Below the pieces are notes generated by a model. That model was given only the letters and a program-made list of their open reading frames with translations, was not told the origin of the DNA and did no database searches. From a virus (Duplodnaviria; Heunggongvirae; Uroviricota; Caudoviricetes), in the IMG/VR virus record IMGVR_UViG_2695420859_000012: a DNA stretch of 64,000 nucleotides; one strand, written 5' to 3'. Every line of letters begins with the position of its first letter. The first letter of the stretch is position 1. The translations under genes were made by a program, and so were the position numbers. This document shows, one piece after another, positions 12,372-64,000 of this stretch.

Positions 12372-13003
12372 TATTCGTCCTCCCCTTCACTTCCATCATC
12401 TGTCGCATCAAATTCGCTTAGAGCTTCTTCTTCCAACGTCTCAAGCAATTCGTCATCGATGATTTCAGGCTCGTCGTCTTCCTGACGTAATTTCGCCACC
12501 TGGGAAGGCGTAAGCTCACCAAATACCAGGTTCGGAATTTCTTCCTCGTCATTTTCCGCATGATCCATGCCCAATGCTTTGGACGAAACTTCAAAGCATT
12601 TTGCAAGGGTATTACTGGCTCTCTGTAAGCTCTTGAGAGAATCCTCAATCGCCCCTAAAGGCTTACCCTCACGTTTGGCCGTAGTGACTTCGACCATCAC
12701 CATCTGCCCCAACGCATACGCCCAGCCGTCATAACGTGTACGACGTTCTTCTATCTTTTCCGCACGGGCTTTAGCGCGAAGCTCTGCGTCAGATTTAAGA
12801 GACTCACGAACCATCTTCCCAACAGAGTCCGCGCCTTTCTCTAATCCTCGCTTTTTGAAATGTCTGGAGAGTGTTTCACGACGAATGCCGTACTCTTCCT
12901 CCAGCTTTGAGAGTGTATATTCGCCTGACGTCCATTTGGCTTCAGCTTCGGCCCACTCCGCTGGTGTCAGGCGAGTTTTTACCTCGTCTTTTTCGACCGT
13001 CAT
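12371..13003 (-). CDS. Terminase small subunit (putative)
   Basis: N-terminal HTH-like segment (YTLSKLEEEYGIRRETLSRHFKKRG) and a highly acidic C-terminus; translationally coupled to the large terminase. Confidence 0.6.
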   Translation of the reverse strand: MTVEKDEVKTRLTPAEWAEAEAKWTSGEYTLSKLEEEYGIRRETLSRHFKKRGLEKGADSVGKMVRESLKSDAELRAKARAEKIEERRTRYDGWAYALGQMVMVEVTTAKREGKPLGAIEDSLKSLQRASNTLAKCFEVSSKALGMDHAENDEEEIPNLVFGELTPSQVAKLRQEDDEPEIIDDELLETLEEEALSEFDATDDGSEGEDE

Positions 13004-13117
13004 AGATCCCTCTAAAACACACAGAGCGCGTCCATGCGCTCTAAAACAACTTGTTTACTGCATTTTCTAACCAACTTGTTTTCTGGGTTGTTTAATTAGG
13101 TCTGGGCATGTCTTATT

Positions 13118-13177
13118 AAGCCTGCTTCCGTATATATTTAATAAGTTACTTATTATTTATATATACAGAAGCAGGTC
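13118..13177. repeat. Long AT-centred palindromic element (copy 1 of 2), upstream of the small terminase gene
   Basis: CCTGCTTCCGTATATAT...ATATATACAGAAGCAGG inverted repeat; a near-identical copy lies at about 37312-37371. Confidence 0.6.
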
Positions 13178-13199
13178 TTTAAATAAGCTCCCAGACCGA

Positions 13200-13466
13200 T
13201 TACATCACCAGTAACTTCGCTTTGGCTCGACCTAAAGTGGTTAACCCAAGAGTTCGGCGGTGATAGCGATTGTCACTGCGTTGGCGCGTATGCCCTTTCT
13301 CCACAAGCCCCTTTTTTATCAGAGCGCGAATTGAGAACTGGATACTTTGCTTGGTTGTCTTGTACGGCAAAACTTCAAGCAATTCGTCCAGATCAAGTAG
13401 ATAACCTCGCTCATAACCGAGATTGAGCGTTTTGATGATGTCCTTTTGTTTATCGGTTAACGTCAT
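13200..13466 (-). CDS. Small winged-helix-like DNA-binding protein (hypothetical)
   Basis: 88-aa basic protein, last gene of the ParB/ABC/GNAT operon; HTH-like segment QSIQFSIRALIKKGLVEKG. Confidence 0.4.
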   Translation of the reverse strand: MTLTDKQKDIIKTLNLGYERGYLLDLDELLEVLPYKTTKQSIQFSIRALIKKGLVEKGHTRQRSDNRYHRRTLGLTTLGRAKAKLLVM

Positions 13467-14366: not shown

Positions 14367-15028
14367 GAATGGACCTCATCGTGACTACCATTGCGATATT
14401 CCACCTTCACGCGTTCTTTGTAGTGCTTGGTGATCTGCATATCCGGGCGCAGCGCGTTCTTCAGGTCTTCGTGAGTCGTCGCCACCATTACCGTCGCACC
14501 AACCTTTCGAGCGGCACGCTGGAGGTTAGACGCCACAACCTGAGCGGTTACACGGTCGAGAACAGCGCCGAACTCGTCAGCAGCCCACACTTTAGCGCCT
14601 GACTCAATCAGTTTGGCAATCTTGAGACGATATTTCTGGCCGTCTGACATTTCAGAAGGCTTGCGAACAAACAGATATGCATCGTTCAGACCAGCCATAG
14701 ATAACAACCCAAGCGCATCACTGGTCGTTTTGCCCAACTGATCGATGACGTTAACCTCATTATCGAAGGTAAAATCATCGATGGAGGCTACAGACAGCCC
14801 TTCATCCTTCATCTGTCGTTGCAACTCGCGCAGCACAACGGATTTGCCGGAACCGGATTGGCCGGTGATGTACACCACATCGCCCTGCTTCACTTCCAGC
14901 TCCAGATTGTCGTAAAGCGTCCACTCTTTTTCGTCCAGGCCAAGCCCGAACGACTCAGCGATTTCCAACGTGCGCGTGGTTTTATTTACGCGTGTCTGAA
15001 ACGATACGTTGATGATGTATTTGCTCAT
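14363..15028 (-). CDS. ABC-type ATPase (stand-alone nucleotide-binding domain)
   Basis: Walker A (GQSGSGKS), ABC signature-like MSDGQKYRL, Walker B (VWAADEF). Confidence 0.6.
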   Translation of the reverse strand: MSKYIINVSFQTRVNKTTRTLEIAESFGLGLDEKEWTLYDNLELEVKQGDVVYITGQSGSGKSVVLRELQRQMKDEGLSVASIDDFTFDNEVNVIDQLGKTTSDALGLLSMAGLNDAYLFVRKPSEMSDGQKYRLKIAKLIESGAKVWAADEFGAVLDRVTAQVVASNLQRAARKVGATVMVATTHEDLKNALRPDMQITKHYKERVKVEYRNGSHDEVHS

Positions 15029-15693
15029 GCAGCCATCTCCCCGGAAGAGATCTTCTCCGCATATGCCACAAATGCGTCTACCCCGCTTTCTCCCGTCATT
15101 TCTTCCATGTGGGCAAGCAAATCACCAACAACAATGGCAGAGCCAGCAGGGAGCGTTTTAAAGCCCAATACGTCGACAACACGTACTTCTTCCGCTGCAA
15201 CTTCACGACTGATCTCGGTGTGTTCATCCTTCTGTCGTTTAGTTTCTTCGCCAAGATCGATAACTAGCGAGTCGGTGTCCATTTCTTCTGTCATACTGCC
15301 AACGAGAACATTCAACTCACGCTCTTCAAAGCCGAAAACCTCGATATCGTCCAGAACAAGCGACTCAAGCTCTTTCTGTAGCTTAATTGCATCGTAATCA
15401 ATGCTGGCAAGTCGGTTATCTTCAAGGCGCTTCGCACGAACCTCGTCATCACTGAGATCATCGCGAACAATAACCGGTACGCGCTCAAGTCCAGCAAAAA
15501 TTGCAGCCTCACGGCGGCCGTGGCCAGTAATAATTACGTCGTTCTTATCGACCGTAATTGGCTGGTCAAATCCGCGCTTTTTAATGGCTGCGGCTAGATC
15601 TCGGATCTGCTGTTCATCATGCTTTTTGGCATTCATCTCATAGGGAATAAGATCTGCCGGGTCGCGATATACGATTTCAAACTTTTTGGTCAT
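15025..15693 (-). CDS. ParB-like nuclease domain protein
   Basis: ParB N-terminal domain motif (ITGHGRREAA); start placed at the internal Met overlapping the stop of the upstream gene (track start 15726). Confidence 0.6.
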   Translation of the reverse strand: MTKKFEIVYRDPADLIPYEMNAKKHDEQQIRDLAAAIKKRGFDQPITVDKNDVIITGHGRREAAIFAGLERVPVIVRDDLSDDEVRAKRLEDNRLASIDYDAIKLQKELESLVLDDIEVFGFEERELNVLVGSMTEEMDTDSLVIDLGEETKRQKDEHTEISREVAAEEVRVVDVLGFKTLPAGSAIVVGDLLAHMEEMTGESGVDAFVAYAEKISSGEMAA

Positions 15694-16391
15694 TACATAC
15701 GCTCCTTGTAGTAGTCGACCAGCCACACCAGAGCCTCACCAGCGTTCTCCATTTCATTACCGGTGTTAATAGCCTGCTCTTTGATGATGTTTTTTATGGT
15801 TTCTGCAACACGATCTGACGCATCGAAAGTTACTTTGAAGCGCATGGTCTGATGTTCCGCACCCACACGTTCGGTTTTCTCTCGTTTGTCGGTATCGACA
15901 GGCTCATCACTACCACGAGACAACGCCTCCAGTGCTTCAAGGTCGATTGCCGCCTCTTTTGCTAAAACCATCGAGATTTCGTCGTCATACGGGGCGATTT
16001 CAGACAGTTGATAGTCAAGTTCTGACTGAATTTCTTCAATGAAGCGTTGCAATGCGATTTGGTCGTCTTCACCGTATCGCTCGTTGTCCACCAGTGACAT
16101 CTGTTTAGCTACGACATCGCTAATTTTGCCCACAGAAAGCACCGGAACCGTTGAAATTCCTTGCTCAATAGCAGCACGCCAGCGATGTTCGCCGCCGAGG
16201 ATTTCAAAAAATCCATCTTCAAGTTCACGAGCCAAAATTGGCTTAAAAAAGCCCAATTTTTCGATAGAACCTTTCAGTTTTTCAAAATTCTGCGCACCAA
16301 CCGAATTGGTGTTCCAGGTATTCGGGCGAAGGTTGGCAACATCAACCTGCAAAATCGTGATTTTTACATCCATTTTATTGCTACAATCCAC
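15693..16391 (-). CDS. ParB-like nuclease domain protein
   Basis: ParB N-terminal domain motif (ILGGEHRWRAA); first gene of the operon, divergent from the helicase gene. Confidence 0.6.
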   Translation of the reverse strand: MDCSNKMDVKITILQVDVANLRPNTWNTNSVGAQNFEKLKGSIEKLGFFKPILARELEDGFFEILGGEHRWRAAIEQGISTVPVLSVGKISDVVAKQMSLVDNERYGEDDQIALQRFIEEIQSELDYQLSEIAPYDDEISMVLAKEAAIDLEALEALSRGSDEPVDTDKREKTERVGAEHQTMRFKVTFDASDRVAETIKNIIKEQAINTGNEMENAGEALVWLVDYYKERM

Positions 16392-27016: not shown

Positions 27017-29050
27017 TTACTTAACCTGGTGGCCAGGTTTAGCACCAGCATCCGGGCTTAACAGGAAGATATCTTTCCCGCCGGGGCCAGCAGCCATCAC
27101 CATGCCTTCAGAGATACCGAAGCGCATTTTACGTGGTGCCAGGTTAGCCACCATAATGGTGTGACGACCAATCAGTGCCTGTGGATCTGGATAAGCGGAA
27201 CGGATGCCTGAGAAGACATTACGCTTTTCACCACCGAGATCCAGCGTCAGGCGAAGCAGTTTGTCAGAACCTTCTACAAACTCTGCGTTTTCAATCAGCG
27301 CCACGCGCAGGTCAACTTTGGCGAAGTCGTCAAAGGTGATAGTTTCCTGAATCGGGTCGTCAGCCAGTGGGCCAGTTACCGGTGCGGCTGTGGCTTTCAC
27401 TTCTTCTTTGGATGCTTCCACCAGTGCTTCAACCTGCTTCATATCGATGCGGTTATACAGTGCCTTGAACGGATTCACTTTATGGCCCAGCAGCGGTTGC
27501 TGGATACCATCCCAGGTCAGTTCTGTATTCAGGAATGCTTCTGCACGTTCAGTCAGTTTCGGCAGTACCGGTTTCAGGTACGTCATCAGCACGCGGAACA
27601 GGTTAATGCCCATAGAGCAAATCGCCTGCAGATCGGCATCGCGTCCTTCCTGCTTTGCCACCACCCACGGAGCCTGTTCATCAACATAGCGGTTAGCCAG
27701 GTCAGCCAGTGCCATGATTTCACGGATAGCTTTGCCAAATTCGCGGCTTTCCCATGCTTCGCCAATCACTTCAGCGGCATCAGTAAAGGTTTTGTACAGT
27801 TGCGGGTCAGCCAGTTCGCTTGCCAGCACGCCGTCAAAACGCTTGTTGATAAAGCCTGCATTACGGGAGGCCAGGTTAACCACTTTGTTAACGATATCGG
27901 CATTCACACGCTGAACGAAATCTTCCAGGTTGAGATCGATATCATCAATGCGCGAAGAGAGTTTCGCAGTGTAGTAGTAACGCAGGCTGTCGGCGTCAAA
28001 ATGATTCAGCCAGGTGCTGGCTTTAATAAAGGTGCCGCGAGACTTGGACATCTTCGCGCCGTTCACCGTCACATAGCCGTGAACAAACAGGTTGGTCGGC
28101 TTGCGGAAGTTGCTGCCTTCCAGCATGGCAGGCCAGAACAGGCTGTGGAAGTAAACGATATCTTTGCCGATGAAGTGGTACAGCTCGGCGGTGGAGTCTT
28201 TCTTCCAGTATTCGTCGAAGCTGGTAGTGTCGCCGCGTTTGTCGCACAGATTCTTGAAGGAACCCATGTAGCCAATCGGCGCGTCCAGCCAGACGTAGAA
28301 GTATTTGCCCGGTGCGTTCGGAATTTCAAAACCGAAGTAAGGTGCGTCACGGGAGATATCCCACTGTTGCAGGCCGGATTCAAACCACTCCTGCATTTTG
28401 TTTGCCACCTGCTCCTGCAACGCACCGCTGCGGGTCCATGCCTGCAACATTTCGCTGAAAGAAGGCAGATCAAAGAAGAAGTGTTCGGAATCACGCATTA
28501 CCGGTGTAGCGCCAGAAACCACTGATTTCGGCTCGATCAGTTCCGTCGGGCTGTATGTCGCGCCGCAGACTTCACAGTTATCGCCGTATTGATCCGGCGC
28601 TTTACATTTCGGGCATGTGCCTTTTACAAAACGGTCCGGCAGGAACATGCCTTTTTCCGGGTCGTACAGCTGAGAGATGGTGCGGTTTTTAATAAAACCG
28701 TTCTCTTTCAGGCGAGTATAGATAAGCTCGGACAACTGACGGTTCTCTTCGCTGTGCGTCGAGTGATAGTTGTCATAGCTGATGTTAAAGCCTGCGAAAT
28801 CAGTCTGATGTTCCTGACTCATTTCGCCAATCATCTGTTCCGGTGTGATACCAAGCTGCTGTGCTTTCAGCATGATTGGCGTACCGTGGGCATCGTCGGC
28901 ACAGATGAAATTAACCTCGTGGCCGCGCATTCGCTGGTAACGAACCCAGACATCAGCCTGGATGTGCTCCAGCATATGGCCGAGGTGGATTGAGCCGTTA
29001 GCGTACGGCAGCGCGCACGTCACCAGAATTTTCTTCGCGACTTGGGTCAT
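27017..29050 (-). CDS. metG: Methionine--tRNA ligase (host-type, near-identical to E. coli MetG by recall)
   Basis: 677-aa protein from [29 protein letters not shown] with HLGH and KMSKS (GAKMSKSRG) class I signatures, C4 zinc knuckle and C-terminal tRNA-binding domain. The track ORF extends 43 codons further upstream to 29179. Confidence 0.95.
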
Positions 29051-29207
29051 AGTAGGCATTACTTCTTTGTAGTGAAAAGGGGCTTGATAGTAACAAAATG
29101 GCCTTATGTCTGCCATGTGATAACAGCATTTCTCATAAATGATTAAATGTCGTAGCTGGAGTACACTACAAGGCGACAATTGCGCAAATTAAAATAAAGG
29201 AGACGGG

Positions 29208-30308
29208 ATGAGCGAGTCCAAATCGCCGGATGCCCTGAGAGCAATGGTAGCCGGTACGCTGGCTAATTTTCAGCACCCAACCCTGAAACACAACCTGACT
29301 ACGCTTAAAGCGTTACACCATGTTGCGTTGATGGATGACACACTGCATGTCGAACTAATCATGCCTTTCGTGTGGAATAAGCCTTTTGAAGACCTGAAAG
29401 AGCAATGTAGTGGTGATCTGCTACGTATCACTGGCGCAAAGGCTATTGACTGGAAGCTGTCGTACAACATTGCCACGCTTAAGCGCGTCAAAAACCAACC
29501 AGGCATTAATGGCGTTAAGAACATTATCGCCGTCAGCTCAGGCAAGGGCGGCGTGGGTAAATCCTCCACGGCGGTAAACCTGGCACTGGCGTTGGCTGCT
29601 GAAGGTGCGAAAGTTGGTATTTTGGATGCCGATATCTATGGTCCATCAATTCCAACCATGCTGGGCGCGGAAAACCAACGTCCAACCTCACCGGACGGTA
29701 CTCACATGGCACCTATCATGTCTCATGGCCTGGCAACCAACTCTATTGGTTATCTGGTCACCGACGACAATGCAATGGTGTGGCGTGGACCGATGGCCAG
29801 CAAGGCGCTGATGCAGATGTTGCAGGAAACACTGTGGCCTGATCTGGACTATCTCGTTCTCGATATGCCACCGGGCACTGGTGATATTCAATTGACGCTG
29901 GCGCAGAACATTCCTGTAACTGGTGCGGTTGTGGTAACTACGCCGCAAGACATCGCGCTGATCGATGCGAAGAAAGGCATTGTGATGTTCGAAAAAGTCG
30001 AAGTGCCGGTACTGGGTATCGTTGAAAACATGAGTGTGCATATTTGCAGTAACTGCGGTCATCACGAGCCAATTTTTGGCACCGGTGGCGCACAGAAACT
30101 GGCCGAGAAATACAACACGCAGTTGTTAGGCCAAATGCCACTTCATATCTCTCTTCGTGAAGATCTGGATAACGGAACACCAACCGTTATTAGTCGTCCA
30201 GATAGTGAATTTACGGCTATTTATCGTGACCTCGCAGATCGCGTTGCTGCCCAAATGTATTGGCAAGGTGAAGTAATACCTGGCGAAATCGCATTCCGCG
30301 CAGTGTGA
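29208..30308 (+). CDS. apbC: Fe-S cluster carrier ATPase Mrp/ApbC (host-type)
   Basis: P-loop ([20 protein letters not shown]), conserved CxxC (CSNCGHHEP); divergently arranged with metG as in enterobacterial chromosomes. Confidence 0.95.
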
Positions 30309-37392: not shown

Positions 37393-37986
37393 CTAAGCAG
37401 CCTTCTTTGATGGTCTTTTTTTCCTGATCACATTCGCAGGATCATACCCTCCCAGACTTTTCATGACGTCCAAAGGGATCTTGCTTATAGAGTGCCCAGC
37501 GTCCTGACAGAATCCTCGAAAAACAACGAGCATACTGCCACCTGGGTTGATGTTTACTTCTACCTGACCCAGATTTACGTCAGGCTCGACAAACGCTACG
37601 CGGCCACCAGACAGAATAATCGTCTCATTCGCACACTCTGTTGCACGCTCATACCACTTTGTATCTAGGGATTGAGGAATTAGCATCACTGTTGTAACTC
37701 CGCGAGCCTGCTCACGTATAGCCGCATCAATCCAGGGGTAGATTTTGGAGTAGGGTGGATTGAGGAAGGCAATTGTACCTGGCTGTCCCCATTCAGATTT
37801 CAAAGCATCACGCTCAACGCCTATGAAATTAGGCAGCTTTGCATTGTCCTTGTTGCAGGCAACGTCAACATCAAATGTCACTCCAAGATAACGTTGAATG
37901 GCAGAAAACAGCCAGTCAGGTGTTCTCCAGAGGTCACGAAGAGAGTTGTCACGCTTTCGCTGTTTGATTTTTTCGGCTGCAATCAT
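37393..37986 (-). CDS. Phage-type DNA N6-adenine methyltransferase (Dam-like)
   Basis: About 197 aa with FLNPPYS motif and cofactor-binding-like region; size and motif order fit the small phage Dam family. Confidence 0.7.
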   Translation of the reverse strand: MIAAEKIKQRKRDNSLRDLWRTPDWLFSAIQRYLGVTFDVDVACNKDNAKLPNFIGVERDALKSEWGQPGTIAFLNPPYSKIYPWIDAAIREQARGVTTVMLIPQSLDTKWYERATECANETIILSGGRVAFVEPDVNLGQVEVNINPGGSMLVVFRGFCQDAGHSISKIPLDVMKSLGGYDPANVIRKKRPSKKAA

Positions 37987-52374: not shown

Positions 52375-53019
52375 TTACAGCGCGTCAGTGGGCTTTTTAC
52401 GCGCTGCGTTTATGCTTATGACGCCAGCTTTTGGACGTGGGTCAACAAGGTTAAGCTCTTCTTCGCTGTGGTATTCGAGGTCGAACTCACGTTTTACATG
52501 TCTGATGTAGATTGCGGTGAGCAGGCTATCTTTGGTCAGAAAGTGTCCGTAGGATTTGCGGATCACTTCTTCTACCTTCTCGATTTTCTCACCACCCATA
52601 CAGAGATGATTAAACCGGCTGTGTTTCCGCAACATTTCGTCTACTGGGCCTGAGTAAACCTTGTCTACTTTCCCAAAACGGATGATTTTCCCTGTGTCTG
52701 CGGATACGAGGCAAATCAGCTTGTCTGGTGATAAACGATCTCGCCACGTCACACCTGAACGGAGTGTGTTGAAGTAGGGAGCATCCAATCCGATGATCGG
52801 TTTACGAAATGCGAGTAATGGAACGTACCTGATGCAACTGTTTAAATGAAAATTCACACCAGCCTTATCAAGTTTAATTCTGGTTTCGTAGATCGGGCAC
52901 TTCGCCGCTATACCGCAGATGTCACAAAGCAACTTCTGCTTATTCAGGTTGGAATTTGATTCGATAGTGTAGGAGCCGTCTTCAAGACGACGAACCCAGC
53001 GCGTGCGTTTTAGATCCAT
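52375..53019 (-). CDS. Hypothetical protein (214 aa) with Cys cluster
   Basis: CDICGIAAKCP-type Cys pairs suggest a metal-binding motif; no family assigned. Confidence 0.45.
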   Translation of the reverse strand: MDLKRTRWVRRLEDGSYTIESNSNLNKQKLLCDICGIAAKCPIYETRIKLDKAGVNFHLNSCIRYVPLLAFRKPIIGLDAPYFNTLRSGVTWRDRLSPDKLICLVSADTGKIIRFGKVDKVYSGPVDEMLRKHSRFNHLCMGGEKIEKVEEVIRKSYGHFLTKDSLLTAIYIRHVKREFDLEYHSEEELNLVDPRPKAGVISINAARKKPTDAL

Positions 53020-53094
53020 ATGTCATTTTTCTGTGATTGTTAGCCGAGGCAACGATAACCCACCAGGTGCGCCGAAGGTAGTAAATGCCTGTTT

Positions 53095-53215
53095 TAATTA
53101 TTCACATATCCACAGGATAGATCCTAATAAAGAGATCCATAGATAGATCCTTATATAGATCAAATAAGATCCCCGATCGCTGTAAGCCGCGCCACGACTG
53201 GTCTGAAGTCATGTT
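53095..53215. promoter_or_regulatory. Origin-like region: DnaA-box-like site and GATC cluster upstream of repA iterons
   Basis: ATATCCACA (one mismatch to the TTATCCACA DnaA box) at about 53101-53113, followed by GATAGATCC-type repeats containing at least five GATC sites in about 70 bp. Confidence 0.5.
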
Positions 53216-53218
53216 CAT

Positions 53219-53321
53219 GTATGCTGTCAGCGGTAATTGATAGTCTGTCAGCGGTTCACCGTATGCTGCCAACTGTTTTTGGTATTCTGTCAGCGGCAAA
53301 TCAAGTATGCTGTCAGCGGTT
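53219..53321. repeat. Iterons upstream of repA (about 5 copies, 22-24 bp spacing)
   Basis: (G)TATGCTGTCAGCGGT and variants (TCTGTCAGCGGT, TATGCTGCCAACTGT, TATTCTGTCAGCGG) at regular two-turn spacing. Confidence 0.8.
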
Positions 53322-53340
53322 GAATGACAAAGGTGTCCAC

Positions 53341-54435
53341 ATGTCCACAAAAAATAAAAAAGGTAAAAATAACAAAGAAGTAGAAGATAACATCGACAAC
53401 TTTGAAGAAGGTTCCCTTGAATTGTACACAGGGGAACTTGTCCCTAATAGCAACAATACAGTCCAACCAATTGCGTTGATGCGACTGGGGTTGTTCGTCC
53501 CCACGCTTAAGGGAACAAAATACAGTAAACGTAACAAGCCAAATGAGATCGATGCTTCAAAGGAGCTTGTCCAGCTCGAAGTAGCCCGTTCTGAAGGCTA
53601 TTCCGATATCAAGATAACCGGTCCTCGTCTCGACATGGATCATGATTTCAAAACGTGGGTGGGCGTTGTGCGTTCGCTGGCAGAATACGGCGAACCTAAC
53701 GGTCGTGTCGAGTTAAGCATCACGAAATTTGCGAAGTTTTGTGGCTATCCATCGTCACAGATCCGCAAAACACTCCGCGACCGGCTTACAAACAGTCTTT
53801 TGAAGATCATGCGTACAACTCTGTCTTTCCAGAGAACGTATGAAGAAAAGAACGTCGACGGCTCTAACAAGATCTCGCTTCTGATGGTGCACCTCATCAA
53901 TAGCGTGGACTACAACGAGCAGAAAGATACGGTGGTGTTCTATGCAGAACCGAAGCTGGCCGAACTATATCGCTTTGACCATAAGGTTCTTTTGCAGTTA
54001 AAGGTTATCAATAAGCTACCACGCAAAGAAACAGCACAGGCTCTGTACACCTTCATCGAAAGTCTTCCAACCAAGCCTGCGCCGGTATCGCTTGCTCGAT
54101 TGCGTGCGCGACTCAATTTGAGTAGCAGGAATGTCAGCTCGCAGAATCAGACTATACGTAACGGCTTAAAAGCTCTCCAAGATTTGGGCTATCTCGAATA
54201 CAGCGAGATTAAGCGTGGGCGGTCGATCTATATCCAGATTCACAGCCGCAATCCAAAACTCAAAGTCGCACCGCCAAAACCTGAAGACATCGAACCCAAA
54301 AAACCAGATGAGAAAGCCGGGGAAATTGATGCCAAACAGAACATTATCAATAAGATAACCGAACTTTCGCAGAATTTGACGCCTGAAAATATCAAGATGA
54401 TTGAGATCCTTTCCAATAGTCTCAAACTGCTTTGA
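53341..54435 (+). CDS. repA: Iteron-binding replication initiator RepA (putative)
   Basis: 365-aa basic protein flanked on both sides by arrays of its probable binding iterons. Start placed at the internal Met after an AAAGGTG RBS; the track ORF start at 53221 lies inside the iterons. Confidence 0.7.
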   Translation: MSTKNKKGKNNKEVEDNIDNFEEGSLELYTGELVPNSNNTVQPIALMRLGLFVPTLKGTKYSKRNKPNEIDASKELVQLEVARSEGYSDIKITGPRLDMDHDFKTWVGVVRSLAEYGEPNGRVELSITKFAKFCGYPSSQIRKTLRDRLTNSLLKIMRTTLSFQRTYEEKNVDGSNKISLLMVHLINSVDYNEQKDTVVFYAEPKLAELYRFDHKVLLQLKVINKLPRKETAQALYTFIESLPTKPAPVSLARLRARLNLSSRNVSSQNQTIRNGLKALQDLGYLEYSEIKRGRSIYIQIHSRNPKLKVAPPKPEDIEPKKPDEKAGEIDAKQNIINKITELSQNLTPENIKMIEILSNSLKLL

Positions 54436-54970
54436 TATGCTGTCAGCGGTGAAATGTATGCTATCAGCGGCTATTTTTCTGAAAAGTATGCTGTGAACGG
54501 TTAAAGATATGCTACCAGCGGTATAGTGAGATGAACGTATGCTGTGAGCGGTAAATCATCTATCACCACTCAATGCTCTGCCATACCTCCCCAGTGGTTA
54601 CTAACCTCGAAGAGTGCATTCCATATAGGTTTGCGCTCACTAACATTCTATTGCTATTGCGCTGATTGCTTGTAGTGAAAGGCATTTATTGCCTGCTACT
54701 CCCTGATAGAATGTATGCTGTCAGCGGTGTTTTATTGAGGAATTTTTGTTTGGATATGCTATCAGCGGTAATTAATGGTATATGTCAGACCTTCGTATGC
54801 TGCCAGCGGTAATTTTGTTCTGGTTATACCCATACCGGGACACATTATTCATGCAATGTCTTAAGTATGCTGTCAGCGGTAAAAAATCGAGTAAAGTATG
54901 CTGTGAGCGGTGAGATAGACTCTCGATATGCTATCAGCGGTAGTTGATTGTGTATGCTGTCAGCGGTGAC
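54436..54970. repeat. Iteron arrays downstream of repA (about 12 copies in two clusters)
   Basis: TATGCTGTCAGCGGT, TATGCTATCAGCGG, TATGCTGTGAACGG, TATGCTACCAGCGG, TATGCTGTGAGCGG and similar at about 54436-54552 and 54712-54967. Confidence 0.8.
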
Positions 54971-55014
54971 GACTATGAAATATGACTGCGGAACGTGCCG
55001 CAGTCAGTTTGCAT

Positions 55015-55227
55015 TTAGTGTATTTTCTTTAACAGACCCCAAAGTGTTCCGGCTTTTGTAGTCAGTTTTCCTGTTTCTGGATCGTACATACGCCATTCAC
55101 GCCGCTGGTGGACGATATACCCATCTTCACGTTCCAGACGCTCAAGAATGCCAGGCTGCTTGAAACCCTTAGCACGCCAGTAGCCGCTTGTTTTCTCGAT
55201 TTCCAGACCTGCCAGTGTTAATGCCAT
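55015..55227 (-). CDS. Hypothetical protein (70 aa)
   Basis: ORF whose start overlaps the stop of the upstream gene. Confidence 0.4.
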   Translation of the reverse strand: MALTLAGLEIEKTSGYWRAKGFKQPGILERLEREDGYIVHQRREWRMYDPETGKLTTKAGTLWGLLKKIH

Positions 55228-55562
55228 TACCCAACCTCCTTGCAGTCATCGAAAAGGTAGCTGTCGTTCTTCGCGTGAACGCCGTATACATCACCCGATT
55301 TGTTGTAAACGAACCTATCTTTACCTACGCCAGATAGTTCGCCGTTACGTTTAGTGAGAAACGGGGAAGACAGGACGCGATCATCGCGTACCACATAAAA
55401 CTGTTCGCCACGGTCCACAACCATCGCGCCGTAATTAGCTTTAACGGCGTTGCGGATCAGGCCGTTTTTCGCTTCGACCACAAACATTTCGCACTCATAG
55501 ACATGTGTGTCCGCAAAGACGGGGAGAGTGAGCAGCGCCAGTACCAGGGCTGTTTTCTTCAT
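55227..55562 (-). CDS. Secreted protein (hypothetical, 111 aa)
   Basis: Predicted signal peptide (MKKTALVLALLTLPVFA). Confidence 0.5.
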   Translation of the reverse strand: MKKTALVLALLTLPVFADTHVYECEMFVVEAKNGLIRNAVKANYGAMVVDRGEQFYVVRDDRVLSSPFLTKRNGELSGVGKDRFVYNKSGDVYGVHAKNDSYLFDDCKEVG

Positions 55563-55736
55563 GCCACGACTCCTTTGAAAACGCCTAATGCTGAGTCGAA
55601 GACCAGTACTACGGCCAGCGCATTGATCATCACATCATTAACAGGCGCCAGCGCTTTACGGATTGCCCCTGTGAAGATGCAGTCGAGCACAAAGGCTATC
55701 GAGATAATAAGTAACGTGATATCTAATAAAATTTTC
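55563..55736 (-). CDS. Small membrane protein (58 aa; below ORF-track threshold)
   Basis: My own translation from a GTG start: VKILLDITLLIISIAFVLDCIFTGAIRKALAPVNDVMINALAVVLVFDSALGVFKGVVA; its stop overlaps the ATG of the downstream secreted-protein gene. Confidence 0.3.
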
Positions 55737-56232: not shown

Positions 56233-59951
<3,719 letters not shown>

Positions 59952-59965
59952 AATTGTAAGTTCCC

Positions 59966-61129
59966 TTAATCAAAATTCTTCTGTTTCATTGCCTCAGCCG
60001 CTTTTTGCAGCGGTCCTTTTAAGGCTTTTTCTAACTTTGTCATCTGCTCTAAGTGCCACGCAACCGCTTGGGGCCAAGTCTCTTTGTTAAACCCGTCAGC
60101 TTTGGTCGAAAACTGGATACGGCAAGATTTCTTCTCATCCAGCCTCATCCACTCAAGTTCTGCACCAAAAGTATGCTCAATGTCTTGTTTGGACTGACTC
60201 AACAAATCAAAAAGGTATTTATTCTCTTCGGTAACCCCACGGCTGATCCAAAGCTCTACTCGAAGCTCTTTTTGCAGAAATATCAGGTTATACGGACATC
60301 CACTTAGCCCTGAGCCTGCTGATAACCAATGATCTTTGCTTGGGCTAATGTTGTTATAGAGTTGGCAAGAGCTTTTCTGAAACGCCTCTAAGGCACGCTC
60401 CCAGTACTCGCGACGCACGGTATGGCGGTTTTTTAGTACCACTTCGGTGGTTTTTTCTTCCGCTTCCTTGGCATTAATGCCGATCATCAACTCTTTCGCT
60501 TCTGGCGTTGGAATGATCTGGTCAATATTAATCAGTAGCTGTTCACCCAGTGAATAAGGCGTGATTTTGAAGCAGGCAATGCTAATGCCTTGACCCAATA
60601 ACCACAGCGCGGTGCTGGTCACTTCTTTGCGAAAGTTTGCCGCAACTAACATAATGCGCTGGCTGTTACCCAGGTTGAGCTTTAACTCATCGAGATCGGG
60701 CGCATCCAAAAACTCACATATTCTAGCAGAGGCACTTGCAGGGGTATTAAACAAGTCAACCTCTCCTGTTACAGGCTCATAGCGGTCTAAGTACTGCTGG
60801 TAAATTTCAACGATTTGCGCTTTGGTTAAACTTGCGCAGTAGGAGGCATATTTAAGCGCCTGCCACACCACATCGCGGCCACTGTCGTCCAGCTTGTTTT
60901 CAATAATGACCAAGTTGCCATCTTTATCCAGTGCCAGTAAATCTAAGCGTTCACGGGTGTCATCAAAGCCATCGAACTCTTTTTGAATAATCAGCAGCTC
61001 TTCACCCAGTGCGGAAGGCTCGTGTGCCAACCATTCCTGAAGATTTTTGCGCTCAGTAAAGCCCAACTCACTGAATCTCTTCGTCTTAACCGGACTAATC
61101 CTGTTGGTCTGATGATTTACCGTGAACAT
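59966..61129 (-). CDS. NucS-like / DUF4268-type protein inserted in the type I R-M operon
   Basis: N-terminal region resembles PD-(D/E)xK NucS-type nucleases (ERLDLLALDKDGNLVIIENKLD...VWQALKYASY); located between hsdS and hsdR. Confidence 0.45.
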   Translation of the reverse strand: MFTVNHQTNRISPVKTKRFSELGFTERKNLQEWLAHEPSALGEELLIIQKEFDGFDDTRERLDLLALDKDGNLVIIENKLDDSGRDVVWQALKYASYCASLTKAQIVEIYQQYLDRYEPVTGEVDLFNTPASASARICEFLDAPDLDELKLNLGNSQRIMLVAANFRKEVTSTALWLLGQGISIACFKITPYSLGEQLLINIDQIIPTPEAKELMIGINAKEAEEKTTEVVLKNRHTVRREYWERALEAFQKSSCQLYNNISPSKDHWLSAGSGLSGCPYNLIFLQKELRVELWISRGVTEENKYLFDLLSQSKQDIEHTFGAELEWMRLDEKKSCRIQFSTKADGFNKETWPQAVAWHLEQMTKLEKALKGPLQKAAEAMKQKNFD

Positions 61130-61138
61130 ATTCGCTTC

Positions 61139-62470
61139 CTATTGCTCAACCATTTCTGGGGTGATCTTGATTTTTCCTGTCACGGCGCTGTTGATCAGGG
61201 TGGTTTTATATTCTTTAAGCTTTTCGATTTGTATTTTTTGATACTCTATAGCTCGCTCAACATCACCATTTAATCTGTTAATGTACGTAATAATTCCATC
61301 TCGTTCATTTTTAGAAGGGGGGAAAGGCACAAAAATGCTATTAAGATTCCCCACTGTAAGCTGATTAATTGTTGATGTAAGAAATGTCCCTGATAACATT
61401 TTGAAAACATCACTATTTAGAATGCAAAATAAATACTCATTGTGTTTAGATCTGAATACCGTAGTAAAGGCCCCGAAGCTGTTTCCCTCATCAGCGTCAG
61501 ATACAAATGCACACTTGCCAATTAGGTCTCGACTTCCATTCCTGGAGCATATCAAAATATCACCTTTTTTAAGCTTTAAGTGCTCAGGAATAAAGCAATT
61601 GACATAAACATTTTCCTTTTCACCATACTTAAACTTCCCTTCGTATAAGTTTGATGATCGCGCAACTAGAGTTCCGCCTTTTTCATCACTTAAATCATTT
61701 GGCGAATAAGTTAACCCAATGATCGATTTACCAAGATATTTTAACCTCTTAACGTCCCAATGCGCTGGAATCTTACCAATCCAATCCACACCGGAGTCTT
61801 TCATTGGCACATTGGGATCAAGCCCTTGGGTCACCGCCTGTTGGATGATGATCTGCTTACGCTCTTTCAGCAGGCTAATTTGCTGCTCTTTGATCGAAAT
61901 CGCTTCGTCGATTAGAGCGGTTTTCTTGTCGAGAAAATTTGCAATTAGGGACTGCTCTTCTTCTGAAGGCAGGACAAAAGGAATCACCTTCATCCGTGCT
62001 TTTGAAAGGTCCCACTGACCAATCCTTACACCATCTGATGCACTACCAAAAAACGATACATATAACTTACTGCGTATCGCCCAATTGAAAAACTCAGGAT
62101 TTATTGCCTTTGTAAAATCAAAAATAAAATACGCAGGACTTACAATTCCAGTGAACTTTGATACACCGTAAGAACCCTGCCACGCTTTCATTTTATTCAT
62201 TCCAAATTGACCTTTCTCAAGCTTTTTATAGCCGCTAAGATCATCTGGTATAAAATTGTGATTTGACTCTTGATTATCCACGTCTCTCTCGATAACACCT
62301 TGTTCGCGTGTTATCGAAAGTAGTGGCAATTCAGGGCAGTTTTTGACCGACACCGGAGATAGGCACGAGCCTAACTTAACCAAGTCCCAATGCTCTGGAA
62401 TCTCGCCAATCCACTCATAACCAGAGTCACTATATTGATCATACTTTAGCGTTGAGGTAATGCTTTCCAT
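61139..62470 (-). CDS. hsdS: Type I restriction-modification specificity subunit
   Basis: 443 aa with two target-recognition-domain halves, each introduced by an IP(E/A)HWD-type motif (GEIPEHWDLVKL and GKIPAHWDVKRL); start overlaps the hsdM stop. Confidence 0.8.
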   Translation of the reverse strand: MESITSTLKYDQYSDSGYEWIGEIPEHWDLVKLGSCLSPVSVKNCPELPLLSITREQGVIERDVDNQESNHNFIPDDLSGYKKLEKGQFGMNKMKAWQGSYGVSKFTGIVSPAYFIFDFTKAINPEFFNWAIRSKLYVSFFGSASDGVRIGQWDLSKARMKVIPFVLPSEEEQSLIANFLDKKTALIDEAISIKEQQISLLKERKQIIIQQAVTQGLDPNVPMKDSGVDWIGKIPAHWDVKRLKYLGKSIIGLTYSPNDLSDEKGGTLVARSSNLYEGKFKYGEKENVYVNCFIPEHLKLKKGDILICSRNGSRDLIGKCAFVSDADEGNSFGAFTTVFRSKHNEYLFCILNSDVFKMLSGTFLTSTINQLTVGNLNSIFVPFPPSKNERDGIITYINRLNGDVERAIEYQKIQIEKLKEYKTTLINSAVTGKIKITPEMVEQ

Positions 62471-64000
62471 TAGGCTTCTCCCTGAACTTCCGCCACTTTC
62501 ACGCCTAATATTTGTGCAATCAAACCATCAGCCTTCTGCTCTAGATTGATAATGTCAGTTGCTACTTCTTCAAGACTACGTAATGGCTTATGCAGATAGA
62601 AATACTTATTGAAGCTGATTTCATAGCCAATTTTTACCGTATCTAGGTTTATCCATGCTTCATCGACATGAGGCTTCACTTCATCTAGGAAGTACTGGTA
62701 AATGCTTTGCTTTAATGGAACAGATTCTGTATCTCGCAGGTCTGAATTGGTCTCGTAAGTGATATACTCGCCTTTTTTACCGCCTTCTGCTGAAGGAACG
62801 GGGTAATAACCAAAATCTGGCAAGTCAGCGACTTCACACTCATAGCGCTCCAGCAGGTCGTTTAATTTATCACCCGTTAATTTAACTACCTTTTTAACCA
62901 CTTTCTTGGCGGTTTCGTCATACCAGCTCACCGCGTGAAGAATGGCATTTTTCTCAGGTGCTGAAAGCTTAATAGCATGGGCTTTTAGCGATTTATCAAC
63001 TTGGGTTTTAAAGCTATTGAAGTCATCAAATTCAATGCTACCGATGTCAGCCATCAGCGTTTGTGCAGTTTCAAGCAATGCTTTTAGCGCCAGCCAGTGT
63101 TTCACATCAAGCAGTTTGGCCTTAGCCTTAGCATTGAGACTGATGTCGTTATCTTCACACCAAGAAAGAATGTCTTTCTCGATGGATTTTAAGAAGCTCT
63201 TTTTCTGATCTGACCCGTAGCCAGTTTTTTCGTAAACACGTTCGCCGTGCTCTGCGTACACGTACTCCATCACTTCACTAAGTTGCTTATCAAAACGCAG
63301 TGGGGCTATGGCATCTTGAGTAAACTTGGCTTTGCGGCGATCTGGGCGCTCGATAGTGACTTTGTAGTAGCCAAAATCGTCATTGCTGAATACCTTACTG
63401 GCGATGCCAACAGGATCATTGTTTGCATCCAGTGCTCTTTCAACATCCTTACACGCGAGGTAAGTATCGGTAATTTCCGTGATGTGCTCAGGCGCAAATT
63501 CGCAGTTTTTGTTACCTAAGTTCTTGCGCAACTTACGGTAGAGCAAGCTGGCATCAATTAATTGCACCTTACCTTTACGCGCCTCAGGTTTATTGTTGCT
63601 CAACACCCAAATGTAAGTGGTAATGCCAGTGTTATAGAACAGGTTATTAGGTAACTGAACGATGGCATCTAGCATGTCGTTTTCAATGATGAAGCGACGA
63701 ATATTACTTTCACCACCGCCCGCATCTCCGGTAAAGAGCGATGAGCCGTTATGAACAGAGGCAATCCGGCTGCCTAATGGACTTACGCTCGGATCTTTCA
63801 TCTTGTTGACCATCTCCATTAAGAAAAGCAGCTGGCCATCACTCGAACGTGGCGTGGCATCCACCACTTCGAGATTTCCCCAATAGTCTTTCAGGCTAAC
63901 CTTAAAACGCGGGTCAATCACATCACTGCCGTCTTTAATGTACTTCTGTTCAGACGCCCAACTCTTACCGTATGGCGGGTTAGACAACATAAAGTCAAAG
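62470..64000 (-). CDS. hsdM: Type I restriction-modification methyltransferase subunit (5' end beyond window)
   Basis: Frame is open to the window edge; NPPYG motif IV sits at the in-window N-terminus, so motifs X and I must lie upstream of 64000. Confidence 0.85.
   Translation of the reverse strand, partial: FDFMLSNPPYGKSWASEQKYIKDGSDVIDPRFKVSLKDYWGNLEVVDATPRSSDGQLLFLMEMVNKMKDPSVSPLGSRIASVHNGSSLFTGDAGGGESNIRRFIIENDMLDAIVQLPNNLFYNTGITTYIWVLSNNKPEARKGKVQLIDASLLYRKLRKNLGNKNCEFAPEHITEITDTYLACKDVERALDANNDPVGIASKVFSNDDFGYYKVTIERPDRRKAKFTQDAIAPLRFDKQLSEVMEYVYAEHGERVYEKTGYGSDQKKSFLKSIEKDILSWCEDNDISLNAKAKAKLLDVKHWLALKALLETAQTLMADIGSIEFDDFNSFKTQVDKSLKAHAIKLSAPEKNAILHAVSWYDETAKKVVKKVVKLTGDKLNDLLERYECEVADLPDFGYYPVPSAEGGKKGEYITYETNSDLRDTESVPLKQSIYQYFLDEVKPHVDEAWINLDTVKIGYEISFNKYFYLHKPLRSLEEVATDIINLEQKADGLIAQILGVKVAEVQGEA

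Follow-up and report, generated by a model that had tools for sequence, protein, structure and literature searches.

The stretch of DNA analysed here (64,000 nt, hereafter the window) carries at 53098-54967 an ordered series of elements, namely tandem DnaA boxes, a cluster of GATC sites, a G+C-rich stretch, five iterons, the gene repA and twelve further iterons. The iterons were identified by scanning the 64-kb window for TATGCTGTCAGCGGT with at most three mismatches. The scan gave 19 matches, while 1.5 would be expected by chance, and 19 matches were reached in none of 100 shuffles. At 53220-54967, 17 iterons of the form R-TATGCTGTCAGCGGT were found, all on the (+) strand. With a weight matrix these 17 copies scored 19.8-28.4 bits, and nothing else in the 64 kb exceeded 13.3 bits. 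The informative length of the iteron is 16 nt (R plus 15), with T1, A2, C5, T6, A10, C12 and G14 invariant, a weakly A-rich tail follows, and the iteron sequence itself contains no GATC.

The two DnaA boxes lie outermost (leftmost) in the origin (53098-53114, (+) strand) and were recognised by pattern scans and by alignment with P1 oriR. TTATTCACA (53098-53106) fits TTWTNCACA exactly, a pattern with only five sites in the window, and the abutting ATATCCACA (53106-53114) has one mismatch to TTATCCACA; neither box is a perfect TTATCCACA. The pair aligns with the annotated boxes of P1 oriR and is kept in Klebsiella, Cronobacter, Rosenbergiella and F RepFIB relatives. Two weak DnaA-box-like sites with two mismatches each, GTGTCCACA and ATGTCCACA (53333-53349, (+) strand), overlap the start of repA. 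Their position holds GTATCCACA in Klebsiella and L008, TTGTCCACA in L009, TTATCCACA in JK004 and CTATCCACA in P1. Two DnaA-box arrays are described for P1 (PMC4980987), and the weak sites may be the counterpart of the right-hand one.

The GATC cluster (53118-53180), delimited by pattern scan, shuffles and P1 alignment, consists of five AGATC(C/A) heptamer-type repeats and one CGATCG. Its six GATC sites (53120, 53134, 53146, 53158, 53168 and 53175) fall within 59 bp, which is the densest such group in the window (the runner-up has 3 per 70 bp), and six GATC in 60 bp were reached in 0 of 300 shuffles. The A+T content of 53115-53178 is only 66%. This stretch is presumed to be the unwinding region and the target of Dam and SeqA. 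Between the heptamers and the iterons lies a spacer (53179-53218) with the G+C-rich stretch GCCGCGCCACGAC (53186-53198). In a five-way alignment (A1), GCCGCGCCACG-CTGG is common to the window, P1 and Klebsiella phage pJN2-26, with looser versions in SSU5 and JK004. Brendler et al., writing in 1991, are said to have presented the G+C-rich stretch as a defining and functionally critical feature of P1.

Directly upstream of repA there are five in-phase origin iterons (53219-53320, (+) strand; incC-equivalent), separated by about 21 bp. Their 16-nt sites start at 53219, 53240, 53261, 53282 and 53305, and the matches to TATGCTGTCAGCGGT at 53220, 53241, 53262, 53283 and 53306 (spacing 21, 21, 21 and 23 bp). 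A weak candidate repA promoter, TTGGTA-N18-AAGTAT (53279-53308, (+) strand), was placed by positional analogy with P1 PrepA; it spans iteron 4, touches iteron 5 and matches just 7 of 12 positions. The sigma-70 consensus scan upstream of repA detected no (+)-strand promoter.

A second set of iterons, of the incA control-locus type, is present downstream of repA, where pattern scan and weight matrix delimited 12 copies at 54435-54967, all oriented like the origin iterons. Array A (54435-54552, (+) strand; incA-equivalent) has five copies, with matches to TATGCTGTCAGCGGT at 54436-54552 and spacing of 21, 30, 21 and 30, and the first copy begins right after the repA stop codon. Array B (54713-54967, (+) strand) has seven, with matches at 54714-54967 and spacing of 41, 41, 70, 31, 30 and 26. 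The spacer between the arrays (54553-54712) is free of iterons: degenerate or inverted copies, as would make a more P1-like array, were looked for with the weight matrix, and neither strand had a site reaching 8 bits. A G+C-rich hairpin of nine pairs (54983-55006), terminator-like on both strands, closes the replicon against a convergent gene at 55015-55227. The original prediction had described about five iterons at two-turn spacing before repA, about twelve in two clusters after it, and a DnaA-box-like site and a GATC-dense stretch upstream. Each of these was found, the DnaA-box-like site being two tandem boxes, and the predicted span of 53095-54970 brackets the feature almost to the base.

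The gene repA (53341-54435, (+) strand) is predicted to encode an iteron-binding replication initiator of 364 aa. Its ATG at 53341 is the start in many database records and is preceded by the Shine-Dalgarno sequence AAAGG (53329-53333). The RepA assignment of the original prediction was borne out by a profile search, in which the protein matched Pfam Rep3_N (3.9e-9), and the protein also matched PHROG 775 (5e-133). It is 52% identical to the RepA of F RepFIB (E 2e-110) and 46% identical to P1 RepA (BLASTP, E 3e-86); by tblastn the identity with P1/P7 RepA is 43.5% over residues 32-309 (E 2e-64). Homologues numbered 477, from Enterobacterales plasmids, and were mostly named as RepB-family or RepFIB initiators. 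NCBIfam returned no family for RepA, and RepE gave no detectable sequence similarity (BLASTP E 0.26). No PDB chain matched the sequence at E up to 1, and kinship with RepE and RctB is seen only via the predicted fold. The AlphaFold2 model, with a mean pLDDT of 66, is of mediocre overall quality and has a winged-helix core at residues ~90-305, where pLDDT is mostly 70-90 and lower at ~210-230. Foldseek search with this model found RctB domains 2-3 (2e-8), RepE (5e-5) and a Rep-ssDNA complex (8e-5). The model thus indicates that RepA carries the winged-helix (WH1-WH2) initiator fold.

Over the whole replicon, sequence identity with the E. coli plasmid pSJC33-2 is 100%; pSJC33-2 is an SSU5-like phage-plasmid recorded as a closed 113-kb circle. 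Among 5,426 complete E. coli genomes the replicon occurs in 119 (~2%), and all 184 places are on plasmids, none being chromosomal. The plasmid-type, extrachromosomal maintenance proposed from the letters is supported by these places and by the closed circle, and the contrary possibility, that the element exists only in integrated form, is not borne out by the data. Most matching plasmid records (199 of 206) are non-mobilizable, and the full-length matches listed are mostly 107-127 kb long.

According to PMC3999498, pECOH89 and p09EL50 have 100% identical RepA proteins, and p09EL50 shows 99.6% identity with window 52900-55100. CP124485, which is 99.4% identical to the replicon, is reported as highly similar to, and is grouped with, IncFIB(H89-PhagePlasmid) plasmids (PMC12838234). 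Through this chain of sequence identities and two papers, the replicon belongs to the PlasmidFinder type IncFIB(H89-PhagePlasmid) (pECOH89, p09EL50), from which no substantive difference was seen, the assignment going indirectly, via p09EL50 and CP124485. Published and database descriptions of the H89 type end at repA; none was found that deals with its iterons, its DnaA boxes or its GATC cluster, a search for experiments on this replicon likewise gave nothing, and the word 'iterons' was absent from the phage-plasmid literature searched. The replicon type is already known, and only annotation of its cis-elements had been lacking.

The layout of DnaA boxes, GATC cluster, five 21-bp slots, repA and downstream direct iterons is kept in seven relatives (Klebsiella phage pJN2-26, Klebsiella sp. 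BIGb0407, Rosenbergiella, two E. coli plasmids, phage PhiR41_1 and a 34.7-kb plasmid), with some of the five origin slots scoring below the three-mismatch cut-off. The 34.7-kb plasmid is not a phage, has parAB and ccdAB, and bears the same replicon type. The number of downstream iterons varies among relatives (12, 9, 8, 6, 4 and 4), while the origin is constant at five slots. In relatives from E. coli that are 96.6-99% identical, array B is complete, PhiR41_1 lacks its last three copies, and an intact repA with all 17 iterons is still seen in relatives as little as 96.6% identical. Scanning of genome contigs yielded just two loci, in Klebsiella sp. and Rosenbergiella, too few for covariation between RepA residues and iteron bases. 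GenBank labels two iteron copies of Klebsiella phage pJN2-26 as attR and attL.

Outside the replicon, the Dam-like methyltransferase that the element had been predicted to encode was located at 37393-37986 ((-) strand), 15 kb from the origin. Its sequence points to a Dam-family N6-adenine DNA methyltransferase (PF05869 Dam, 2.9e-38; PHROG 111, 8e-65), and in pSJC33-2 the gene is annotated as phage N-6-adenine-methyltransferase. The element also encodes its own DnaB-like helicase, primase and ligase, and, away from the replicon, a site-specific integrase; pECOH89 has been reported with dnaE. No par genes are adjacent to the replicon. ParB/Srx-domain genes (window 14370-16380) were considered as a partition system and rejected, as they sit in the terminase/packaging block. 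A ParA-like AAA ATPase is encoded beyond the window (record 12722-13390).

Nucleotide alignment of window 53087-53201 with the P1 oriR core gave 78% identity over 118 nt (E 5.5e-18), and the origin core (DnaA boxes, GATC sites and G+C-rich stretch) is 75.6% identical to the F RepFIB origin. In the five-way alignment the mean column identity is 72%, the DnaA boxes, heptamers and G+C-rich stretch are conserved, and all five Dam sites annotated in P1 are matched by a site at the corresponding position of the window. The GenBank annotation of P1 runs in the order of tandem DnaA boxes, five Dam sites, five incC iterons overlapping PrepA, repA and incA. With 46% identity between its RepA and that of P1, and an origin core that can be aligned at 78%, the likeness to P1 is, judged by sequence, homology (common descent) and goes beyond analogy.

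We conclude that 53098-54967 is very probably the replicon by which an SSU5-like phage-plasmid of E. coli is maintained in the plasmid (prophage) state, and a member of the P1 R-replicon/RepFIB family with iteron-controlled theta replication. Its dependence on Dam and SeqA, the binding of RepA to iterons, the promoter and autoregulation, handcuffing and copy number are inferred by homology with P1. RepA monomers would occupy the five in-phase iterons (53219-53320), and host DnaA would bind the tandem boxes (53098-53114) and perhaps also the weak boxes that overlap the start of repA. Acting jointly, DnaA and RepA may open the A+T-rich GATC-heptamer stretch between them, leading to helicase loading. 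Firing would need fully methylated GATC sites, and SeqA would hold the hemimethylated ones. Origin-bound RepA would cover its own promoter, resulting in autorepression, and the 12 downstream iterons might titrate RepA and handcuff the origin iterons, giving about one copy per chromosome and incompatibility. In P1, deletions of incA give copy-up. Since the downstream iterons are all direct here and mixed in orientation in P1, SSU5 and F RepFIB, the details of pairing could differ.

The role of methylation in this scheme can be read in another way. The GATC cluster might not be needed for firing and might serve only SeqA sequestration (negative timing), or might be an unwinding element indifferent to methylation. 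Against this reading, all five P1 Dam sites are matched in position in the window, and when P1, SSU5, Klebsiella, Cronobacter and F RepFIB are compared, the heptamer columns rank among those with the highest conservation. Furthermore, going by the titles of published papers, P1 replication reportedly requires methylated DNA, and methylation is said to have a role in the REPI replicon, which we take to be of the RepFIB type. The absence of GATC from the iterons points the other way, as RepA binding should then be independent of methylation, and for oriC the Dam requirement was found to be an artefact of plasmid context and not intrinsic to the origin (PMC2865523). We regard a dispensable GATC cluster as unlikely, though as an alternative to be taken seriously.

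It is very improbable that, in place of copy control, the arrays downstream of repA (54435-54967) serve as a second origin or as a centromere-like partition site. Their iterons have the sequence of the origin iterons and so must be bound by the same protein. With 12 copies in two clusters and a single direction, the arrays are unusually large, and the absence of par genes next to them leaves room for another cis-acting role, but neither array is flanked by a DnaA box, a GATC cluster or an A+T-rich stretch, and their position matches that of P1 incA. Moreover, array copies vary freely among relatives and the origin is fixed at five slots, which fits a dosage-type regulator. That the repeats are the attL and attR of an integrated prophage, or that the replicon is a non-functional relic of an element maintained otherwise, is hardly credible: the att labels of the pJN2-26 record, the integrase and a related SSU5-type repB/parA region reported in the S. 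Agona chromosome (bioRxiv 10.1101/2025.09.12.675607) would agree with it, but there are 17 copies rather than two, the labelled repeats are themselves iterons, the records are closed circles, repA and its iterons are intact in relatives, the non-phage 34.7-kb plasmid has the same replicon type, and integration was rejected both for the number of repeats and because none of the 184 places is chromosomal.

With 53098-54967 read as a P1/RepFIB-family replicon, the comparison with SSU5 reveals break points exactly at the boundary of core and iterons (53179/53180) and just past the last iteron (55016/55017). The block of iterons, repA and iterons behaves as a swappable specificity cassette beside a conserved host-factor core. 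From these break points, and from a core 75-78% identical to P1 and F while RepA is only 46-52% identical, we tentatively suggest that the core of DnaA boxes, GATC sites and G+C-rich stretch could be a fixed 'socket' constrained by host factors, into which specificity cassettes are exchanged by recombination among P1-, RepFIB- and SSU5-type elements; this is possible, but at present the less probable case. If true, phage-plasmids could switch incompatibility group with the rest of the genome untouched. As a corollary, the all-direct 12-copy array could lose copies through deletion between repeats, as from 12 to 9 in PhiR41_1, and such contraction could give heritable copy-up variants with altered dosage of cargo such as resistance genes.

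The replicon would explain the low-copy plasmid persistence of a widespread E. coli phage-plasmid family, some members of which carry blaCTX-M-15. With the base-level map, annotation errors can be put right, namely a start of repA set within the first iteron and, in a relative, the naming of iterons as attL and attR, and the map supplies defined targets for curing, copy-number studies and the building of mini-replicons. It also predicts compatible pairs of phage-plasmids and IncFIB plasmids, compatibility being predictable because iteron sequence tracks RepA clade (TATGCTGTCAGCGGT here, GATGTGTGCTGGAGGGAAA in P1 and JK004, CCACTGTAGTGAG in SSU5 and ATAAGCTGT in F RepFIB). No new principle beyond the P1/RepFIB paradigm emerges, and the replicon is real but ordinary.

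One of the known systems compared is RepFIA of F (ori2, repE, incC). The RepFIA layout comprises DnaA boxes, an A+T-rich region, origin iterons, the initiator gene and downstream control iterons, and RepFIA has in common with the present replicon its logic, this layout and the winged-helix fold (Foldseek to RepE). Since RepE is without sequence similarity, the likeness is limited to fold and layout, and RepFIA is best seen as an analogue, the present replicon not being a member at the sequence level. The P1/F-like layout of the original prediction therefore stands for P1 and for F RepFIB, which have a homologous RepA and origin core, and does not extend to RepFIA in sequence.

SSU5/pLF82 (Cyrano), of type IncFIB(pLF82-PhagePlasmid), has a common phage backbone and genomic position. 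The flanks, with the DnaA/GATC core included, are 77% (52385-53179) and 86.5% (55017-55714) identical, whereas the block between them is replaced: RepA is only 47-48% identical, and the SSU5 iterons (CCACTGTAGTGAG) bear no relation to those here, are present in larger number and lie in both orientations. There is also an additional iteron/DnaA/GATC stretch upstream in SSU5.

In P1, the DnaA boxes, all Dam sites and the G+C-rich stretch are in register with the window. There are likewise five incC iterons (spacing 21/21/21/22, compared with 21/21/21/23 here), the incA iterons abut the repA stop codon as array A does, and PrepA (TTGCTA, an 18-nt spacer and TAGGAT) lies at the position homologous to that of the candidate promoter. 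The plasmid prophage of P1 also encodes an adenine methyltransferase. The differences are that P1 has another iteron (GATGTGTGCTGGAGGGAAA instead of TATGCTGTCAGCGGT), nine downstream iterons (3 direct, 6 inverted) instead of 12 in two clusters and all direct, five GATC sites instead of six, and a RepA of 286 aa instead of 364 aa, which is without the disordered Lys-rich N-terminus and the C-terminal two-helix tail found here. Additionally, there is no adjacent parAB here, and P1 is a myovirus while the present element is of the SSU5-like siphovirus type.

The closest characterised RepA, C-terminal extension included, is that of RepFIB (IncF plasmids F and P307; IncFIB(AP001918)). The F RepFIB core has five GATC sites, and iterons flank repA on both sides, but these iterons are of the ATAAGCTGT type and the downstream repeats are mixed in orientation. 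With distinct iterons, coexistence of the H89 type and IncFIB(AP001918) is predicted. The two have in fact been reported together in one strain (PMC12838234), indicating functionally distinct incompatibility specificities.

The original prediction placed about five iterons at two-turn spacing before repA and about twelve after it in two clusters; direct counting gave 5 + 5 + 7, and the predicted limits of 53095-54970 proved correct almost to the base. A scan of the 64-kb window with the 15-mer TATGCTGTCAGCGGT, allowing up to three mismatches, yielded 19 matches (1.5 expected; none of 100 shuffled sequences reached 19), 17 of which fall within 53220-54967, every one on the plus strand. The five origin iterons start at 53220, 53241, 53262, 53283 and 53306 (+), upstream of the repA ORF, with spacings of 21, 21, 21 and 23 bp that correspond to two helical turns. 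The first downstream cluster (n = 5, 54436-54552, +) begins immediately after the repA stop codon, and the second (n = 7, 54714-54967, +) was found by the same TATGCTGTCAGCGGT scan. With a weight matrix built from the copies, members scored 19.8-28.4 bits and everything else in the window at most 13.3 bits, and no iteron copy was detected by the matrix in the 160 bp that separate the downstream clusters. The informative length of the iteron is 16 nt (R-TATGCTGTCAGCGGT), followed by a weakly A-rich tail. Inside the repA coding region there is a weak inverted iteron-like site, GTATTCTGCCAGCGAA (53673-53688, minus strand), whose 13.3 bits fall short of the true copies; it could be due to chance or be an internal operator.

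The DnaA-box-like site and GATC-dense stretch expected just upstream are both present. The DnaA boxes upstream of the iterons are imperfect; TTATTCACA at 53098-53106 is an exact fit to TTWTNCACA, one of only five such sites in the window, and a second box, ATATCCACA, adjoins it. The window's densest GATC cluster packs six sites into 59 bp (53120-53178; matched in 0 of 300 shuffles), and five of these are part of AGATC(C/A) heptamer-like repeats. A Dam-family methyltransferase is encoded by the element itself, as had been claimed (37393-37986, minus strand; PF05869, 2.9e-38). Two weak DnaA-like boxes at 53333-53349 overlap the repA start, a position at which relatives carry better boxes, consistent with the second DnaA-box array described in P1 (PMC4980987).

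The repA ORF is best read from the ATG at 53341, giving 364 aa, because AAAGG precedes it at 53329-53333, because homologues align from residue ~30 on, and because many depositors make this ATG base 1 of their record; the PhiR41_1 record uses the equivalent start. The RefSeq/PGAP start is the ATG at 53221 (404 aa), which lies within iteron 1, so its first 40 residues ('MLSAV...' repeats) are translated iterons. The RepA profile search suggested as a check matched Pfam Rep3_N (3.9e-9) and PHROG 775 (5e-133). RepA is 85% identical to the Klebsiella phage-plasmid RepA (E 0) and 47-48% identical to SSU5 RepA (E 4e-78, tblastn). In the AlphaFold2 model (mean pLDDT 66, core mostly 70-90), structural matches to RctB domains 2-3 (2e-8) and RepE (5e-5) indicate that the predicted fold of the initiator is winged-helix. 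The C-terminal part (residues ~306-364, window 54258-54432) contains a disordered Pro/Lys-rich linker (308-329) and a tail of two confidently predicted helices (331-363, pLDDT ~85) with a Leu-rich end, ...IEILSNSLKLL; this tail could serve dimerisation or a chaperone or helicase contact.

The genes annotated around the replicon mark the element as an SSU5-like phage-plasmid (tape measure, capsid, portal, terminase, nrdAB, thyA, dfr, RNase H and exonuclease), and other parts of the record carry primase, DnaB-like helicase and ligase genes. Over the 2.2-kb region, E. coli plasmid pSJC33-2 (a non-mobilizable circle of 113,446 bp) matches at 100% identity. Dozens of plasmids from E. coli and Shigella, most of them ~107-127 kb long and p09EL50 of E. 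coli O104:H4 among them, match at 99-100%, and Escherichia phage PhiR41_1 matches at 99%. Of 5,426 complete E. coli genomes, 119 carry the replicon; its 184 occurrences are all on plasmids and none is chromosomal, which supports the predicted plasmid-type maintenance.

The replicon corresponds to a catalogued type and is in that sense already known. The announcement of pECOH89 (PMC3999498) reports that its RepA is fully identical to p09EL50 RepA and shows 48% similarity to pLF82 RepA, the same figures as obtained here, and counts parA, parB and dam among the genes in common. Such 110-kb plasmids have been typed as IncFIB(H89-PhagePlasmid) and described as highly similar to CP124485 (PMC12838234), which is 99.4% identical to the window replicon. 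The same study found a single strain harbouring an H89-type plasmid alongside an IncFIB(AP001918) plasmid, as distinct iterons would predict. According to Pfeifer et al. (PMC7969092), most typed phage-plasmids are IncFIB, mainly in the SSU5 supercommunity, and P1-like elements carry alternative replicases at the same position. The phage-plasmid literature found does not describe the iterons, DnaA boxes or GATC cluster of the H89 replicon and nowhere uses the word 'iterons', and none of the database records examined annotates them. The attR/attL labels in the record of Klebsiella phage pJN2-26 (MZ779062.1; 1378-1397 and 2648-2667) were rejected, since these 20-bp repeats flanking repA are iteron copies; the labels are an artefact of prophage-prediction software.

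The layout is repeated in pJN2-26, Klebsiella sp. BIGb0407, Rosenbergiella collisarenosi (RepA 78% identical), three further E. coli elements (two plasmids and PhiR41_1) and a 34.7-kb non-phage E. coli plasmid. The origin iterons of these relatives always occupy five slots (21/21/21/23 bp), while the downstream number varies across the elements compared (12, 9, 8, 6, 4, 4), as expected for an essential origin beside a dosage-type regulator. Iteron sequence follows RepA clade, as it should if RepA recognises the iterons: TATGCTGTCAGCGGT in the window and the Klebsiella/Rosenbergiella clade, GATGTGTGCTGGAGGGAAA in P1 and Cronobacter phage JK004 (RepAs 85% identical to each other), CCACTGTAGTGAG in SSU5 and ATAAGCTGT-type in F RepFIB. 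In the comparison with SSU5, backbone identity is 77% as far as 53179 and 86.5% from 55017 onward, and the block between is replaced, so the iteron-repA-iteron unit behaves like a specificity cassette with a conserved host-factor core next to it. These cis-map details and swap boundaries are useful yet predictable from the P1/RepFIB paradigm. The fuller proposal, that a conserved 'socket' in the origin receives exchanged cassettes and that copy-up variants arise when the all-direct control array contracts, is speculative and rather doubtful.

Several relatives depart in detail. PhiR41_1 (99% identical; listed host E. coli K-12 MG1655) is missing the final three iterons (window 54866-54967; ~4061 of its record) through a deletion that fuses the copies at 54866 and 54953; two E. 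coli plasmids examined closely keep all 17, and other plasmids give megablast matches without a break. By analogy with P1 incA deletions, this shortened control array might raise copy number. SSU5 (JQ965645.1) keeps the shared DnaA-box/GATC core at 780-848, and its 780-1400 region carries extra iterons (895-981) and a second DnaA-like/GATC stretch (1108-1293) ahead of the repA-proximal iterons, so that its origin looks composite or duplicated; its downstream iterons are of mixed orientation, with ~21 sites over the whole locus. The 94-kb phage JK004 (MZ188976.1, 1190-2580) has a P1-type replicon with P1-type iterons, three direct then four inverted downstream, and a RepA 85% identical to that of P1, further evidence that replicon cassettes move between phage backbones. 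The 34.7-kb plasmid pCFSAN004176P_01 (NZ_CP012492.1, 6000-7460) carries the same replicon type (DNA 81%, RepA 87% identical). Its two DnaA boxes are perfect, it has five GATC sites, the origin has five slots and the downstream array four iterons, and parAB, an IS3 element, integrase and ccdAB lie on its flanks; phage genes are absent from the 13.4-kb stretch examined, so the replicon type is not restricted to phage-plasmids.

Neighbouring genes were also inspected. The gene diverging from the origin (52375-53019, minus strand, 214 aa) belongs to a conserved phage family (PHROG 2105, 1e-132) and gave no match in Pfam and NCBIfam searches; the Cyrano record names its counterpart an ASCH RNA-binding-domain protein, and it is linked to the origin core in H89-type and SSU5-type elements alike. 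About 1.3 kb past the replicon, 56233-64000 holds an IS3-family transposase fragment (56233-56919) and a type I restriction-modification system (hsdR 56934-59951, then a DUF4268 gene, hsdS and hsdM). PhiR41_1 has unrelated small genes at this position, indicating a variable cargo or defence slot beside the replicon. Full-length metG (methionyl-tRNA synthetase) and apbC/mrp, host-type housekeeping genes at 27017-30308, are complete as a pair in at least 202 plasmid records and are thus fixed cargo of the lineage, not a one-off capture.

By homology with P1 and RepFIB, RepA monomers would bind the five phased iterons and DnaA the flanking boxes, and the heptamer stretch between boxes and iterons, which is 66% A+T, would open for loading of a helicase, either the host's or the element's own. 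P1 and a RepFIB-type replicon are reported to require Dam; here firing would need full Dam methylation of the heptamers, and SeqA would sequester hemimethylated DNA. Bound at the origin iterons, RepA would repress its own promoter. No consensus promoter was found for repA; a weak candidate, TTGGTA-N18-AAGTAT, lies at the P1 PrepA position and fits 7 of 12 consensus positions. The downstream iterons would titrate RepA and handcuff the origin, giving low copy number and incompatibility specificity.

The original observation is thus confirmed and its interpretation supported, and homology of the origin core goes beyond that reading. Positions 53087-53201 share 78% identity with the P1 oriR core (E 5.5e-18), and 53098-53181 are 75.6% identical to the F RepFIB origin. 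In a five-way alignment of the window, P1, SSU5, pJN2-26 and JK004, the tandem DnaA boxes, AGATCC heptamers, AGATCCCCGATCG motif and G+C-rich GCCGCGCCACG-CTGG stretch are in register, and similarity stops at the start of the iterons. At sequence level the likeness to F holds for RepFIB (RepA 52% identical, E 2e-110) but not for RepE, with which pairwise comparison detected no sequence identity (E 0.26). The likeness to P1 (RepA 46% identical, E 3e-86) extends to the order annotated in GenBank: DnaA site, five Dam sites, five incC iterons, repA and nine incA iterons. The incC iterons are spaced 21, 21, 21 and 22 bp and overlap PrepA, the first incA iteron abuts the repA stop codon as in the window, and each P1 Dam site has a window counterpart, the sixth window GATC being AGGTCC in P1. 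P1 RepA lacks the disordered Lys-rich N-terminus and C-terminal two-helix tail of the window protein, whereas RepFIB proteins share the tail. The replicon is a true member of the P1/RepFIB family; its downstream iterons are all direct, which sets them apart from the arrays of P1, SSU5 and F RepFIB.
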